In this document: piece after piece, positions 2,834 through 13,534 of the stretch
Numbering within the stretch: the first letter of the stretch is position 1
Layout of the letters: each line of letters starts with the position of its first letter
IMG/VR virus record: IMGVR_UViG_3300038366_000033
Span: 14,378 to 78,377 of that record
Strand: one strand, 5' to 3'
Source of the DNA: a virus
DNA length: 64,000 bases
The notes under the pieces: generated by a model
Databases searched by the model: none
What the model saw: the letters and a program-made list of their open reading frames with translations, nothing else
Told to the model about the DNA's origin: nothing
Position numbers and translations under genes: made by a program

Positions 2834-2874
2834 GTTGGAAAACTGGAAACAGTATATGGAACACGCGTTCATCA

Positions 2875-2916
2875 AGCAGTACTGGTCGCTCGGGGGTTCG
2901 ACTCCTCCGGCTGCTA
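2875..2916 (+). ncRNA. tRNA-like minihelix (acceptor + T arm, no D or anticodon arm)
   Basis: AGCAGT pairs with GCTGCT+A; GGGGG-TTCGACT-CCTCC T arm; GAAACAGTATAT promoter-like element at 2846-2857. Confidence 0.55.
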
Positions 2917-2972
2917 TCTATGGTAACAACTACCATGCATACCATACAACTTTACGGCGAGGTAAAATCACA

Positions 2973-3338
2973 ATGATGGATCAACCATTTTACATGGTCG
3001 AGGTATCAAGATCGGACGCGGAAAAGATGCAGACGTACATGTTCGAAAACAACCTTCAGCATTACTTCGACATGGACGAGAGAAGAGTCGAGAAGGTCGA
3101 GAGAGTACCACTGGAAAAGATCAACCACTTCACAGAGGAACACGTACAGGAACTCTTCAGAAGCCTAGAACAGGAATACGACTTCAGCTTCGAGAAGGAC
3201 CACTCGGACATGAAGAAATCTGTCCAAGAGATGAGAGAGGCTATCAGAGATGCTCTGGTAAGTGAGCTCATCCAGAAGGGAGATAAGGACGACACGTTCT
3301 CAGAGGCTCTTTTGAGAGGTGTAGAAGATGCCGGTTAA
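2973..3338 (+). CDS. hypothetical protein
   Basis: acidic portion of ORF 2781 from ATG 2973, GAGGT RBS. Confidence 0.7.
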   Translation: MMDQPFYMVEVSRSDAEKMQTYMFENNLQHYFDMDERRVEKVERVPLEKINHFTEEHVQELFRSLEQEYDFSFEKDHSDMKKSVQEMREAIRDALVSELIQKGDKDDTFSEALLRGVEDAG

Positions 3339-4502: not shown

Positions 4503-5258
4503 ATGGCATTAGACAGAGATAAGTTGAAGAAAGCCGGCAAAGCTGCCGGTCTCGGTGTCGTCGGAGCCGGAGTTGGGGCACTAGGATCCCAGCAGGTAGA
4601 CGACGCACCATCAAAGGAGAAAGTACAAAACCTACAAGATCAGAAAGCTGACCTAGAGGAAAAGGTCGCCAATCTGGAAGAGAGACCTACCCAGGAGGAC
4701 CTAGACAATAGAGTCGCGGACCTCAAGGAAGATACGGTAGCTCAGAAGGAGTATCTAGAGCTCAAAAACAAGTACGAACAGGCATACACTCAGGAAGAGG
4801 TAGACGCGCTAGTCGCAGACGCCGAAGAGAGAGAAGGACTTGTTGGCTACCTACCAGTACTGGTAGACGAGGAAGTCGAGCTCAGGAACGGCGATGTCGA
4901 GGCCAAACATGACGTACAGGCAACAGACGGCAACCTAGAACACCATGTGGTCGCAGATGACGCTGACTTTGACGAGTCAGATCTCGACAACGAGGAATAC
5001 GACCAGATCAGAGCCGTTTACAGACACGACGACGGTCATCAGTATGAAGTACTTGTCAGAGCCTTCGAGGACGGAGACGACGCAGACGAGTACGAGGGAG
5101 AGCTCAGACAGGCAGTAGAGTTCGCAGACTACGACGACCAGATAGATGCAGACGCAGACGTCATAAGATCGGGCGATACAGTACTGTACCTTAAGGGCGA
5201 GGCAGACGTAGACGACTACGACACTTACAGGTACGACAAACTTGTAGGCCAGTATTAA
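4503..5258 (+). CDS. N-terminally anchored, coiled-coil, very acidic surface protein
   Basis: basic N-terminus + AAGLGVVGAGVGALG, heptad region, D/E-rich C-domain. Confidence 0.75.
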   Translation: MALDRDKLKKAGKAAGLGVVGAGVGALGSQQVDDAPSKEKVQNLQDQKADLEEKVANLEERPTQEDLDNRVADLKEDTVAQKEYLELKNKYEQAYTQEEVDALVADAEEREGLVGYLPVLVDEEVELRNGDVEAKHDVQATDGNLEHHVVADDADFDESDLDNEEYDQIRAVYRHDDGHQYEVLVRAFEDGDDADEYEGELRQAVEFADYDDQIDADADVIRSGDTVLYLKGEADVDDYDTYRYDKLVGQY

Positions 5259-6895: not shown

Positions 6896-7303
6896 ATGAC
6901 AACCGACAGATTTTCTGTGGACAAGACGTTTACCCACTGTGGATATACGTGTGTCATAGCTACGATCAAGGACGACTACCACTGTGGATATATCGCGATC
7001 CCTGACGAACACAATATGGCCGGAAAAGATTATACGGAGATCGACGTGACCGTACACGGCGGACTCACCTTCGGACCGCAAAACGACCTTCACGGCATGG
7101 GCGAGGACGATGATACAGTCTGGTACGGCTTCGACTGTGCACACGCCGGAGATCATACGAGATCGATGCCTGGCGGCACAAACTGGCAGTCAGAAGACGT
7201 CAGGGAAGAGCTTCTCAATCTGGCCGAACAGTTCAGGGACCTAGACACCTCGGAGACAAAAAGTATTTATAGCCTGATGCAGGGATTCTTACCATGGAAC
7301 TAG
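6896..7303 (+). CDS. conserved phage hypothetical protein
   Basis: CGYIAIP..H, VHGGLTF and WYGFDCAHAGD motifs. Confidence 0.75.
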   Translation: MTTDRFSVDKTFTHCGYTCVIATIKDDYHCGYIAIPDEHNMAGKDYTEIDVTVHGGLTFGPQNDLHGMGEDDDTVWYGFDCAHAGDHTRSMPGGTNWQSEDVREELLNLAEQFRDLDTSETKSIYSLMQGFLPWN

Positions 7304-7514: not shown

Positions 7515-7865
7515 ATGAACTCCTCTTTCATGAAAACATTTCTCAACGTCAGAGTAGCTGACACGCCCGAGGAGAGAAAGACGGGACTTCAGGGCAGAGA
7601 GAAACTACCCGACTACGAGGCACTTTTACTTGACTTTGATCAACCCGGCAACCACAAGATATGGATGAAAGATACACATGTCCCTCTCGACATAGTTTTC
7701 ATGGACGAAGATGCCAACGTCACAGACATCAAACACGGCGAACCACTGGACACCACCAAACTGTCCGCAGATGATAACGTCTCTTACGTCCTAGAGCTCA
7801 AACGCGGGAAGGCAGAGGACTTCGGTATTGAACCCGGAAACTCTATGGAGGATATAGTACTATGA
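7515..7865 (+). CDS. DUF192-family protein
   Basis: VADTPEERKTGL, IWMKDTHVPLDIVF, YVLEL. Confidence 0.85.
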   Translation: MNSSFMKTFLNVRVADTPEERKTGLQGREKLPDYEALLLDFDQPGNHKIWMKDTHVPLDIVFMDEDANVTDIKHGEPLDTTKLSADDNVSYVLELKRGKAEDFGIEPGNSMEDIVL

Positions 7866-8005: not shown

Positions 8006-8021
8006 ACACGTAATTATGTGA

Positions 8022-8156
8022 TAGTGGTCGGTCATGGGTTGTCGACCAAAGGTTGTTGCGATTGCATCGGTTGATTTCGGTACGCGCACCTTTGCGGTAC
8101 CGGATAAAGGGTGCATGTGACCCCTATCGTGGAAGATAAGCGTAGGGGGGCACCCA
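8022..8156 (+). ncRNA. candidate structured ncRNA (four stem-loops)
   Basis: promoter-like AAAAGAGTTTAAAAG at 7986-8000; stems TGGTCG/CGACCA, TTCGGTAC/GTACCGGA, GGGTGC/GCACCC enclosing CCCCTA/TAGGGG. Confidence 0.6.
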
Positions 8157-8201
8157 CATATTATCCAAAGCTTTTTGAACCTGACTACATAATATACGTA
8201 T

Positions 8202-8555
8202 ATGGATAACAGACTTGACCTCCTCTCCGAAACTGTACGGGATTCCGAATACAAAGACTTGTTTCCTGCAACTTCTCCCGAAGACGCCAGATCTGACCGT
8301 GAAAAAGTCAAGGAAGCGATATTTCAGGTACACCACATGATTTACGACGAGAACCTGAGACAACTCGCAGTCTCAAGCGATGCAGGACTGATACCTTTTG
8401 AGGACGTTCTTAACTCGTGTAAAGACATGGACGACCGTGAAAGAGCCCGGACACTGCTGGCTTCAGACATCACAGAGTTAGAGGACGGCACAGAGGTTGT
8501 CATGAGATCGGACCTACTAAACGTACTGAAATCTCAGAAGGAGGCGGTCCGGTAA
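8202..8555 (+). CDS. hypothetical protein
   Basis: leaderless, acidic. Confidence 0.7.
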   Translation: MDNRLDLLSETVRDSEYKDLFPATSPEDARSDREKVKEAIFQVHHMIYDENLRQLAVSSDAGLIPFEDVLNSCKDMDDRERARTLLASDITELEDGTEVVMRSDLLNVLKSQKEAVR

Positions 8556-8758
8556 TGGCACTCTGTGACAGAGACCACTGCAGCGAAGGAGCCACTACAC
8601 GCATACAGAGATCCGACAGAGACAATCTGTACTTATGTGACGAACACAAGTCAAAGCTCGCCGACAAGATAAGAGACAAAGTCGTGGAAAAGTTCGATGA
8701 CCTCTCGGAGGAAGAAATCAAAGACCGGATGCTTGACGGGGGCGCAGACCTGCTGTGA
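8555..8758 (+). CDS. small Zn-binding protein
   Basis: CDRDHC...LCDEH. Confidence 0.65.
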   Translation: MALCDRDHCSEGATTRIQRSDRDNLYLCDEHKSKLADKIRDKVVEKFDDLSEEEIKDRMLDGGADLL

Positions 8759-9288
8759 CTGACATCCGCGACAAGCACGACGAGATAGCCGAGGAGACAG
8801 ATGTCGACCTAAAAGATTTCAAATACTACGCGGTCGGATTTCACGTCGCGGACTCACTGATAGGCAAAGACCCCGGACAGCCGGAGTTCGTCGTGACGGA
8901 AGAAGACCACGAGTCGATGGTCGACCGCGGCTTCAACCATCTCGAAGAACGGTACTATGACCTAGACGGAAGATACGTCTTCACTCTCGCGGAGGGCGAC
9001 AACTCTCTGGAAGCTCACCTCAGACGAAAGAGAACTTTCACTGTCGAGGCCATCGCCATGAAACCGGGAGAGCAGAGTTACCACTTTCCGCTTATGAACA
9101 CGTTTGACGACGACAGAGAGAGACCGGAGAAACCGGTGGATCCGATAGCTGATCTCAAGAACGGGGTCATTCGCCACACGACAAAGGAGGCGGTCGAGAA
9201 CGCCGGTGACTTCCAAGAAGAGCTAGAGGACATCAAGCACAGATATCCGGACTTCGAGCTCGCAGAAGAGACAAGAAAACTGATGTGA
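8755..9288 (+). CDS. degenerate class II tRNA nucleotidyltransferase (CCA/poly(A) polymerase head domain)
   Basis: YYAVGFHVADSLIGKDPGQPEFVV; SLEAHLRRKRTFTVEAIAM; VDPIADLKNGVIRH. Confidence 0.65.
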   Translation: MTDIRDKHDEIAEETDVDLKDFKYYAVGFHVADSLIGKDPGQPEFVVTEEDHESMVDRGFNHLEERYYDLDGRYVFTLAEGDNSLEAHLRRKRTFTVEAIAMKPGEQSYHFPLMNTFDDDRERPEKPVDPIADLKNGVIRHTTKEAVENAGDFQEELEDIKHRYPDFELAEETRKLM

Positions 9289-9289
9289 G

Positions 9290-9775
9290 ATGGGCTTTGA
9301 TCTTGACTCTCTCAAAGTCGCCGAGATATCGGGAGAGGGCGCCCGGAAGAAGGTAGATCACATCATAGAACGGAACCACTACCTGCAGTCAGTACCCTTC
9401 GTGCCTACAAAACACAGATACCTGATCACCTTCGGTCTCAAAGGCGTGGTCGGTGCCGCAGCGTGGGGCAAGCCGGTCGCACGTATGGAGGACCAAGAAG
9501 ATACTGTAGAACTCCTGAGGTTCTGGACCGCCGACTCCACGCCGAAGAATACTGAGTCCAAGGCCCTAGGGTACATGATGCGAGACATGAAGGACAAGGG
9601 CTATGAGAGACTGATCGCCTACGCCTCCGAGGGAGAAAACCACGAAGGGACAATCTACAGGGCGACGAACTGGGAGATAGAGAAGAGAACAAACAGGTCG
9701 GGCACGTGGGAAAACAGATCCGGCAGAAACGACCGCGACAAGGCAGATAAGATCAAGTTCTGTAAGCAACTGTAA
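9290..9775 (+). CDS. Mom-like (GNAT-fold) DNA modification enzyme
   Basis: NHYL, GAAAWGKPVAR, ELLRFW, PKNTESKAL, IAYAS...HEGTIYRATNW. Confidence 0.8.
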   Translation: MGFDLDSLKVAEISGEGARKKVDHIIERNHYLQSVPFVPTKHRYLITFGLKGVVGAAAWGKPVARMEDQEDTVELLRFWTADSTPKNTESKALGYMMRDMKDKGYERLIAYASEGENHEGTIYRATNWEIEKRTNRSGTWENRSGRNDRDKADKIKFCKQL

Positions 9776-9798
9776 CTCTTATCACGTTTAATATACAA

Positions 9799-10635
9799 TT
9801 AAGTTTGTTTGAGCCTATTAAGTGACTGATTGATGTACTCTTGCTGCGTTTCCATTCCGATATATTCTCTATCTCTTCTCTTAGCCGCCACTAAACAACT
9901 TCCGCTTCCAGCAAAGATGTCTACTACTTTGTCTCCTTTGTACGAGTAGAATTTGATTACTCTTTCAGCCAACTCTACTGGGAAAGGGCAAGGATGGTCT
10001 GTTTCTTGAGGTGCTGTAGGTCTAATCTTCCAGGCATTTTTGCTTTGCTCTCCCTGATAGTCAGAAAGATCTATTTCATTCTCTTCCTTTTGCTCTTGAC
10101 TTTTGTCGTGGTAGATATTCTGTTTTGAGTCGCTTTCTGCTGGTTTCTGGAAGACGAAAATATATTCTGTCACTAGACTTGGATAATAATAACCAGGGTA
10201 TGGATGCTGCATCAACACTCCGGATCTTCTATCCTTAGCAACTGGTTTTTCCCAGACTATATCCTCTTGGAACTCCCAGCCAATCTCTTCCATCCAGCTG
10301 ACGAAATGAAAGGGTAATGCAACTCTATCTCCGTTCCAGGAGACAGGAGCGATGTTAACGACATTATATCCACCGGGCTCTGTTATTCTGAATAGCTCTT
10401 CAAACCTCTCAGTCAGAAAGTCTCTGTACTCATCATAATTTATATCCTCCCTCTCCCATTTTTCGTCATTGTCTAAATTTTGCGTGTGTTCATCATAATT
10501 CACAGCATTGAGGTATGGTGGAGATGTGAAGCACAAAGTAATCTCACTCTTGTCTATATCCCTCATCACATTAAGACAGTCACCTTTGATAATAGTCCCT
10601 TTGGATCCAAATGTTTCATAGTCGGAAAATTCCAT
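9799..10635 (-). CDS. beta-class DNA amino-methyltransferase (probably m4C)
   Basis: TSPPY motif IV precedes DIFAGSGS motif I; HPCPFP. Confidence 0.9.
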   Translation of the reverse strand: MEFSDYETFGSKGTIIKGDCLNVMRDIDKSEITLCFTSPPYLNAVNYDEHTQNLDNDEKWEREDINYDEYRDFLTERFEELFRITEPGGYNVVNIAPVSWNGDRVALPFHFVSWMEEIGWEFQEDIVWEKPVAKDRRSGVLMQHPYPGYYYPSLVTEYIFVFQKPAESDSKQNIYHDKSQEQKEENEIDLSDYQGEQSKNAWKIRPTAPQETDHPCPFPVELAERVIKFYSYKGDKVVDIFAGSGSCLVAAKRRDREYIGMETQQEYINQSLNRLKQT

Positions 10636-10719
10636 ATTTGTTATTAGTACTGGATTTTGATATATCCTTCCGTCGACAAAAGTACTATAAGTGAGTATAA
10701 CTTTGTGTAGTAAGGGACG

Positions 10720-12535: not shown

Positions 12536-13534
12536 ATGACAGAGACAAAACAAACAACACCAAATATATTCCAGGCAAGAACGAGCCTAAAACCGTACGA
12601 ATACTCGGACTTCCTTGACTACAAGGATGCAATCAGAAACTCATACTGGGTACACAACGAGTTCAACTTCTCGGGAGACGTACAGGACTTCAAGGTTGAT
12701 ACCACAGACGTAGAGAAAAGTGTAATCAGAAAAACGATGCTCGCAATATCACAGATAGAGGTATCAGTCAAGACCTTCTGGTCTGACATTTACGAGGAGA
12801 TGCCTAAGGCAGAGATTTCATCTGTCGGACAAACTTTCGCAGAGTCAGAGGTAAGGCATATGGACGCATATTCACACCTTCTCGACATCCTCGGAATAAC
12901 AGAGGACTTTGAAGAGGTAACAGAAGTACCTGCCATCAAGAACAGAATAGACTATCTGAACGAGATGAAGGAGGGCGCAGACTCGGACGACCGTAAAGAG
13001 TACGTCAAGTCCATCATGCTTTTCTCGACCTTCGTAGAACATGTATCGCTATTCTCACAGTTCTTGATCATGACGAGCTTTGACAAATATGAAAAGAAGT
13101 TCAAGGGAATCTCCAATGCCGTCGAGGCCACAAGTAAAGAAGAACAGATTCACGGTCTCTTCGGTGTCGAACTTGTTAATCAGATCCGGGAAGAAAACCC
13201 TGAGATGTTTGACAAAGAGTTCGAGCAAGAGATTCAGGATCACTGCATGAAAGCGTACGAGGCAGAACAAGACATCCTTGACTGGATATTTGAAGAAGGA
13301 GAGTTAGACTTCTTGCCACGTAAACACATCGACGAGTTCCTGAAGGACAGATTCAACCAGAGCATGGAGAATGTGGAGGTAGAACCGATTTTCGAGACAG
13401 ACGACGACCTACTAGAAGAGACAAGATGGTTTGACGAGGACATTATGATGACAAAAGACAACGACTTTTTCAGTAAGAGATCGACCACGTACAACAAGAA
13501 CACAAAATCCGTCACGGCTGGTGACATGTTCTAA
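12536..13534 (+). CDS. nrdB: ribonucleotide reductase class I beta subunit
   Basis: ESEVRHMDAY, EHVSLFSQF, KEEQIH diiron motifs; DFFSKRSTTY tail. Confidence 0.95.
   Translation: MTETKQTTPNIFQARTSLKPYEYSDFLDYKDAIRNSYWVHNEFNFSGDVQDFKVDTTDVEKSVIRKTMLAISQIEVSVKTFWSDIYEEMPKAEISSVGQTFAESEVRHMDAYSHLLDILGITEDFEEVTEVPAIKNRIDYLNEMKEGADSDDRKEYVKSIMLFSTFVEHVSLFSQFLIMTSFDKYEKKFKGISNAVEATSKEEQIHGLFGVELVNQIREENPEMFDKEFEQEIQDHCMKAYEAEQDILDWIFEEGELDFLPRKHIDEFLKDRFNQSMENVEVEPIFETDDDLLEETRWFDEDIMMTKDNDFFSKRSTTYNKNTKSVTAGDMF

Follow-up and report, generated by a model that had tools for sequence, protein, structure and literature searches.

The window, by which we mean the whole stretch of 64,000 nucleotides analyzed here, corresponds to bases 14378-78377 of a 78,377-bp IMG/VR virus record, which is estimated to be about 71% complete. 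Among its genes are those for a large terminase, a major head protein and a ribonucleotide reductase, and its proteins are strongly acidic. Strongly acidic proteins are typical of tailed viruses of halophilic archaea, and the source of this DNA is a tailed virus of salt-loving archaea. ARAGORN calls no tRNA gene in the window, nor in the 14.4 kb that precede it in the record, and no Rfam family is called across the window. The gene under study is the third in a coupled run of four, which encode, in order, a 117-aa protein, a zinc protein, a protein related to the head domain of CCA-adding enzymes (hereafter the head ORF) and a Mom-like protein. A DNA methyltransferase gene lies convergently beyond them.

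8202..8555, + strand: 117-aa protein, first gene of the coupled four-gene run
8555..8758, + strand: 67-aa zinc-ribbon-like protein (weak DUF7455), start/stop-coupled and directly upstream of the head ORF
8755..9288, + strand: truncated class II CCA-adding-enzyme remnant of 177 aa (head and first neck helices)
9290..9775, + strand: Mom-family GNAT of 161 aa, starting 1 nt past the stop of the head ORF
9799..10635, - strand: N4/N6 DNA methyltransferase, convergent; a variable insertion, missing in the near-identical contig L003

A 200-nt gap lies in front of the run and contains a TATA-like box some 25 nt ahead of the first ATG (8202). The non-coding stretch at 8021-8200, which ends with the TATA-like ACATAATATACG, is 100% identical between the window and L003, although the adjacent coding DNA varies, and it is predicted to fold, as RNA, somewhat better than shuffled sequence (z -2.08). 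Further upstream lie a PHROG 2164 protein with a weak MazG-like pyrophosphatase match (6896-7303) and a DUF192 protein (7515-7865), and this block looks like a region of nucleic-acid metabolism and anti-restriction genes.

The head ORF starts with a GTG at 8755 that overlaps the stop codon of the 67-aa ORF (GTGA), ends with the stop at 9286-9288 and is followed by the ATG of the Mom-like gene at 9290. It shares an N-terminal MTDIR and a C-terminal AEETxxx with its relatives. PHROG 2244 ('tRNA nucleotidyltransferase') matches residues 22-147 of the protein with an E value of 8e-7. A Pfam scan of the window protein alone gave no reportable match; PF01743 was matched by 4 of 8 close relatives in our own scan, and precomputed matches to it exist for two of three close relatives. 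When a profile built from four members of the clade was searched against 1.8 billion representative proteins, 485 were retrieved at E<=1e-3. Nearly all of them are class II enzymes of 330-460 aa, and the only further short-form representatives among them are P0005 (179 aa) and P0006 (257 aa). Other routes to relatives gave little: phmmer against PDB sequences returned nothing, scans of viral contigs with the head alignments, a single Mom protein and the zinc-protein alignment brought no further relatives, and a scan of genome contigs yielded only a weak partial match in a Rhodospirillaceae MAG. The homology of the head ORF to class II tRNA nucleotidyltransferases, over their head and first neck helices, is well beyond chance.

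The structural model agrees with this assignment. AlphaFold models the protein with a mean pLDDT of 92.3, a value that may be inflated by an underlying alignment rich in canonical enzymes. Foldseek matches the model to 7oqx and 1miv (E 1e-6), and VIA gives Z scores of 13.4 to 1miv and 15.5 to 3aqm across residues 1-177. In the PDB, the closest structures come from class II CCA enzymes and from E. coli poly(A) polymerase (Z 12-15.5). The 177-aa protein is thus predicted to retain a Pol-beta-like head fold followed by neck helices. Minimal nucleotidyltransferases of toxin and antitoxin systems, MenT among them, reach a structural Z of only 3.5-3.7, and PADLOC gave no meaningful match. Membership in the Gad2-type viral nucleotidyltransferases (PF26128) was considered and rejected, as neither the window protein nor its 8 relatives match that family; a search of the protein atlas had given only leads below its cut-off of 0.9, to short viral PolyA_pol and Gad2 clusters at 0.88-0.89, with the Gad2 lead at 0.88.

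The fold is kept and the motifs that define the active enzyme are not. We compared them with full-length relatives in alignment A2; the positions below refer to the window, and the canonical state is given from the family or from L004, a metagenome locus carrying an intact-looking viral enzyme.

8830..8868, + strand: remnant of the motif A helix, AVGFHVADSLIGK; canonical GGxVRDxLLG, of which the second G and the R are gone; L004 has AVGGQVRDSLLGK
8878..8886, + strand: Q42-P43-E44 in place of the catalytic DxD; L004 has D-F-D
8992..8997, + strand: site of a 16-residue deletion after E80, which removes the third carboxylate and its beta-hairpin in all short-clade members
9016..9051, + strand: remnant of motif B, HLRRKRTFTVEA; canonical DLxRRDFTINA
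9064..9144, + strand: clade-specific loop PGEQSYHFPLMN...RPEKPVDP, strongly conserved in the putatively dead short forms and in full-length viral enzymes
9199..9213, + strand: NAGDF (N149-A150-G151-D152-F153) in place of EDPVR, the base-reading motif D

Thus AVGGQVRD of the full-length relatives reads AVGFHVAD in the window, and RRRDFTINS of L004, whose RRD serves in ribose recognition, reads RRKRTFTVEA. The deleted hairpin is ARTE...GYHDF in full-length enzymes, with the third carboxylate of L004 lying within TEKSTGDGYHDFETET. The loop at 9064..9144 has the lowest confidence of the model (pLDDT 71-75). No member of the short clade has two carboxylates of the triad. The first DxD position varies among its members (Q, P, N, Y, R, K or D), the second, E44 in the window, is E in most of them, and P0004 is the sole member to keep KRD. 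The protein is also truncated: with AEETRKLM it stops at about residue 203 of the L004 enzyme, which has 461 aa, and beyond the first neck helices it lacks most of the neck as well as body, tail and HD domains. The C-terminal part of a CCA enzyme was not found elsewhere in the whole virus record.

Pol-beta-type transferases require these carboxylates for two-metal catalysis, and the window protein would therefore be unable to add nucleotides by that mechanism. In class II enzymes (PMC3925840) base recognition is a task of the neck, and the tRNA is held at its acceptor and T helices by body and tail. With both the carboxylates and these tRNA-holding domains gone, we infer that the protein is catalytically dead and lacks the main parts that hold tRNA.

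An earlier reading of the same DNA, the original prediction, had called this gene an intact, coupled ORF for a class II head of non-archaeal type that had lost its catalytic residues, and much of that description stands. The ORF is intact and coupled on both sides; the altered motifs it listed (VGFHVAD, QPE and motif B) and the missing EDxxR are confirmed against full-length relatives in A2; and the class assignment is borne out by PHROG 2244, by the 485 proteins of the profile search and by A2. A match to the Pol-beta fold had been set beforehand as a check, and the model, with its high pLDDT and its Z of up to 15.5 against class II enzymes, provides one. What had been overlooked is the 16-residue deletion, the truncation, and the descent of the gene from a full-length viral enzyme at the same locus.

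This descent can be followed in two metagenome loci. L004 encodes an intact-looking enzyme of 461 aa that scores with PolyA_pol, PolyA_pol_RNAbd and HD, and L005 encodes an intact-looking enzyme that runs off the end of the contig after 194 aa. Both keep GGQVRD, DFD or DYD, ARTE, RRRD and EDPVR, and both lie behind a homologue of the 67-aa zinc protein. Furthermore, the acidic and membrane ORFs 3' of the L004 enzyme are those found 3' of the methylase in the window, and the Mom-like gene and the methylase are both missing in L004 and L005. In a maximum-likelihood tree the short forms make up one clade (support 99/96), which is nested inside the full-length viral clade, beside L005, and which has a single origin. 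Its tip branches measure 0.26-0.51 against 0.11 in the full-length forms, and the short forms evolve 3-5 times faster than the active enzymes. P0006, with its 257 aa, is intermediate. It shares the carboxylate losses and the deletion, and eroded remnants of neck and body persist in it; catalytic death therefore came first and truncation later. The head ORF descends from a virus-borne class II CCA-adding enzyme of the E. coli type, with head, neck, body and HD domains.

Within 3 kb of the CCA enzyme, L004 also carries an RNA ligase (PF09414; 3469-4143) and a GatB/YqeY-domain protein (4600-5148), and the three together look like a gene set for tRNA repair and translation. No RNA ligase was found in the whole virus record, and a search of that record with the GatB/YqeY protein of L004 gave only a weak 64-residue match, at record bases 12996-13187.

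The isolate protein that comes closest to the L004 enzyme is the product of gene 242 of HGTV-1 (35.5% identical), ahead of phage CCA enzymes. The Halogranum virus HGTV-1 carries a tRNA nucleotidyltransferase (PMC8651126). The full-length enzymes of archaeal tailed viruses belong to the same lineage as the window protein, and those of L004 and L005 share with it the N-terminal helix, the YHFPLxN loop and the upstream zinc protein. These enzymes keep GG, DxD, the third carboxylate, RRD, EDxxR and the RNA-binding and HD domains, whereas the 177-aa protein has none of these. Bacterial multifunctional Cca and the CCA enzymes of phages (Vequintavirinae and others) have the same fold and family (Z 12-15.5; about 25-30% identity for the phage proteins), but they are active enzymes of four domains, in contrast to a head-only protein whose catalytic residues are gone. 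The 191-aa bacterial protein NP_344798.1 (PDB 2LA3), named 'CCA-adding enzyme head domain', is likewise a small protein consisting of the head-type fold alone (Z 9.1 over 145 residues) and is only 10% identical to the window protein. In the tree the window form arose independently, by truncation inside the viral clade, and nothing points to common descent with 2LA3 as a short form. We also noted that a 420-aa 'DNA methylase' of Serratia phage Kashira (ON287374.1; 4055-5317 of the locus) matches the CCA-enzyme head at its N-terminus. It was considered as a link to DNA modification and set aside, being most likely a misnamed CCA transferase, since 420 aa is the length of such an enzyme.

The pattern of substitution speaks for continued constraint on the protein. 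With synonymous sites saturated, we replaced dN/dS by codon-position distances and a neutral simulation. Between the head alleles of the window and L003, pN is 0.33 and pS 0.80 (saturated), and codon positions 1, 2 and 3 diverge by 0.39, 0.25 and 0.64. When substitutions were placed at random to equal divergence, the 141-codon frame stayed open in 1% of 20,000 simulations. Across 10 short proteins, which are 46-63% identical to the window's and include two pairs of near-identical cluster mates, 46 columns are invariant, and these include the surface loop PGxQxYHFPLxN, also found in the active viral enzymes. Random decay of the homologues, which the original prediction had named as an outcome that would speak against it, was not seen by these measures. 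These patterns show coding constraint that outlasted catalysis, in the form of relaxed purifying selection. In L003 the head copy is frameshifted by 1 nt after IIRHT, and from there on the shared PDFELAEETRKLM end is reached in the other frame. This may be real decay or, as the contig is old, a sequencing error. Only two short copies, those of the window and L003, were seen as DNA, and the protein-database members, which require a gene call, are biased toward intact copies.

The head gene also differs from its surroundings in how it varies between genomes. In DNA, the window and L003 are 90-100% identical on either side of it, zinc protein and Mom-like gene included, whereas the head gene between boundaries near 8740 and 9240 is 42-68% identical in DNA and 51% in protein. 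A single 2012 study supplies four viral metagenomes in which this stretch is present, and one of them may be its source. In the other three, the head allele of the window (8788-9207) is found as a single contig at depths of 7.8, 13.1 and 39.6, compared with summed depths of 57.5, 73.9 and 110 just downstream, on the Mom-like gene. Contigs on the Mom side have loose ends at 9246, from which they continue into different sequence resembling the L003 allele. The minority depth and these loose ends indicate that several head alleles co-circulate on one backbone. A second mosaic patch lies at 8381-8560, in the C-terminal half of the 117-aa gene, where otherwise near-identical genomes have 60-75% DNA identity. 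The methylase region (9796-10668) shows a polymorphism of presence and absence, with loose ends at 9766 and 10668 and a lower contig depth in the three viromes, and the methylase is missing from the near-identical L003.

The gene that starts 1 nt after the head ORF belongs to PF25680 and PHROG 1384. Mom of phage Mu was shown in 2026 to move glycine from Gly-tRNA(Gly) onto N6 of adenine in double-stranded DNA (PMC13219725). Equivalents of the Mu Mom (PDB 8BV8) residues H58, Y59, R111, S124 and Y159 are kept in the window protein, but those of D149 and R151 are not. With 161 aa against 231 in Mu, it ends before the HTH-like insertion (about residues 175-209 of Mu Mom) that is essential in Mu, and it is predicted from its sequence to be a minimal Mom. 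It has a conserved basic C-terminal tail. Mom-like proteins of about 160 aa make up 38 database clusters and 388 IMG/VR loci, compared with about 6 clusters of short heads, and a class II transferase was found within 3 kb at none of 80 IMG/VR Mom-like loci. Furthermore, the Mom-like proteins of the window and L003 are 98% identical, against 51% for the head. The adjacency of head and Mom looks secondary.

The second locus named by the original prediction is a minihelix at 2875, with a T-arm-like GGGGGTTCGACTCCTCC at 2889-2905. No tRNA is called there by ARAGORN and no family by Rfam, and its fold energy is ordinary, no better than that of shuffles (z -0.55). It (2846-2920) falls at the 5' end of ORF 2856-3338, inside its first 22 codons; the in-frame ATG of this ORF stands 22 nt after the stop of the previous gene, and the ORF has no homologues outside the record. 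The idea that a 410-aa ORF upstream of the minihelix is an integrase, with the minihelix as an attP tRNA fragment, was considered; the ORF matched no Pfam family.

The best explanation of these data, which we hold with somewhat better than even confidence, is that the ORF probably encodes a retained, non-catalytic protein descended from a viral CCA-adding enzyme. Its main rival, a serious one that we nevertheless think rather unlikely, is that the ORF is a slowly decaying relic without a function of its own. The CCA gene would have eroded stepwise after tRNA repair was no longer needed, and its 5' third would persist inside a coupled operon, where its translation would bring ribosomes to the Mom-like gene that begins 1 nt further on. 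The start/stop coupling on both sides of the ORF fits such a relic. Branches 3-5 times longer than those of active forms and the stepwise series of 461, 257 and 177 aa are as expected of decaying genes and count against a retained protein, as does the frameshift in L003, one of the two copies seen as DNA. The lack in this record of the RNA ligase and GatB/YqeY genes of L004 likewise suggests the loss of a whole tRNA-repair set and not a new role. Coupling alone, however, keeps the frame and not the residues, and second codon positions diverge least (0.25 against 0.64 at third positions). A pN well under a saturated pS, the 46 invariant columns with their surface loop, and the fact that all members have the same start and nearly the same end also argue against a mere relic. 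That the protein is still an enzyme, using non-canonical residues such as E44 for nucleotide transfer or another reaction, has next to no probability in our view. The glutamate at the second DxD position in most members and the kept fold, with its motif-B and motif-C helices, could be read in that sense, but every member is left with at most one carboxylate of the triad, the deletion takes away the third throughout, the first position is variable, and the motif that reads the nucleotide base is gone.

Two further explanations give the protein a partner encoded in the window. In one, which we consider improbable, the dead head is an accessory subunit of the adjacent Mom-like enzyme and holds the tRNA acceptor end or the DNA. 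A low probability also attaches to its extension, by which the pair would constitute a two-protein, aminoacyl-tRNA-dependent system of DNA hypermodification, the minimal Mom lacking a nucleic-acid-binding insertion of its own. The dependence of Mom on tRNA (PMC13219725), the 1-nt spacing of the two genes, the five Mu residues kept in a 161-aa protein without the essential insertion of Mu, and the joining of at least three head alleles to one Mom gene are all in keeping with a subunit. Against it, the head gene predates Mom at this locus, as L004 and L005 have the full-length enzyme and no Mom; Mom-like proteins of about 160 aa are far commoner than short heads, and none of the 80 loci has a class II transferase; Mom and head do not co-vary (98% against 51%); and the domains that would hold tRNA are missing from the head. 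The other explanation, that of the original prediction, is of a pseudoenzyme that binds tRNA 3' ends and, with the minihelix, acts as an RNA decoy or in tRNA protection; we consider it very improbable. The substrate of the ancestral enzyme was an acceptor/T-arm minihelix (PMC3925840), a basic RRKR patch is kept in the motif-B helix, and positions 2889-2905 resemble a T arm. The binding of tRNA 3' ends is nevertheless not supported, given the loss of body and tail, the absence or alteration of the base-reading residues of the neck and the deletion of the hairpin beside the catalytic site. The proposed partnership fares no better, as the minihelix has no tRNA or Rfam call and an ordinary fold, sits inside ORF 2856-3338 and is separated from the head ORF by 5.9 kb and many genes. 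Beyond the ancestry of the head protein, nothing supports a link between the two.

For the retained protein that we favor, the course of events begins with steps that the alignment and tree show. The ancestor of the short clade lost the metal-binding carboxylates together with the hairpin that bears the third of them, and everything past the first neck helices was lost later. The substitution patterns suggest that the dead protein is still made, kept folded and held under relaxed purifying selection. It would most likely act by non-catalytic binding, through surfaces shared with the active viral enzymes, namely the N-terminal helix, the basic motif-B helix and the YHFPLxN loop. Its partner would probably be a protein or nucleic acid, possibly one involved in virus-host conflict, a proposal made because strongly divergent alleles are exchanged on an otherwise constant backbone. 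Mosaic alleles are a common feature of viruses of halophiles and do not by themselves imply conflict.

[quoted passage not shown] What is new here is a small clade that has apparently lost catalysis, together with two thirds of its length, and that is nevertheless conserved and swapped between genomes as divergent alleles. The adjacency to a Mom-like gene, of a family that uses tRNA, offers a specific and testable hypothesis. Should the ORF be only a relic, it would document the stepwise loss of a tRNA-repair module in haloarchaeal viruses. As a retained protein, it would be a natural case of what a nucleotidyltransferase head domain does without its chemistry, and it could be a candidate for a protein of virus-host conflict in hypersaline systems.
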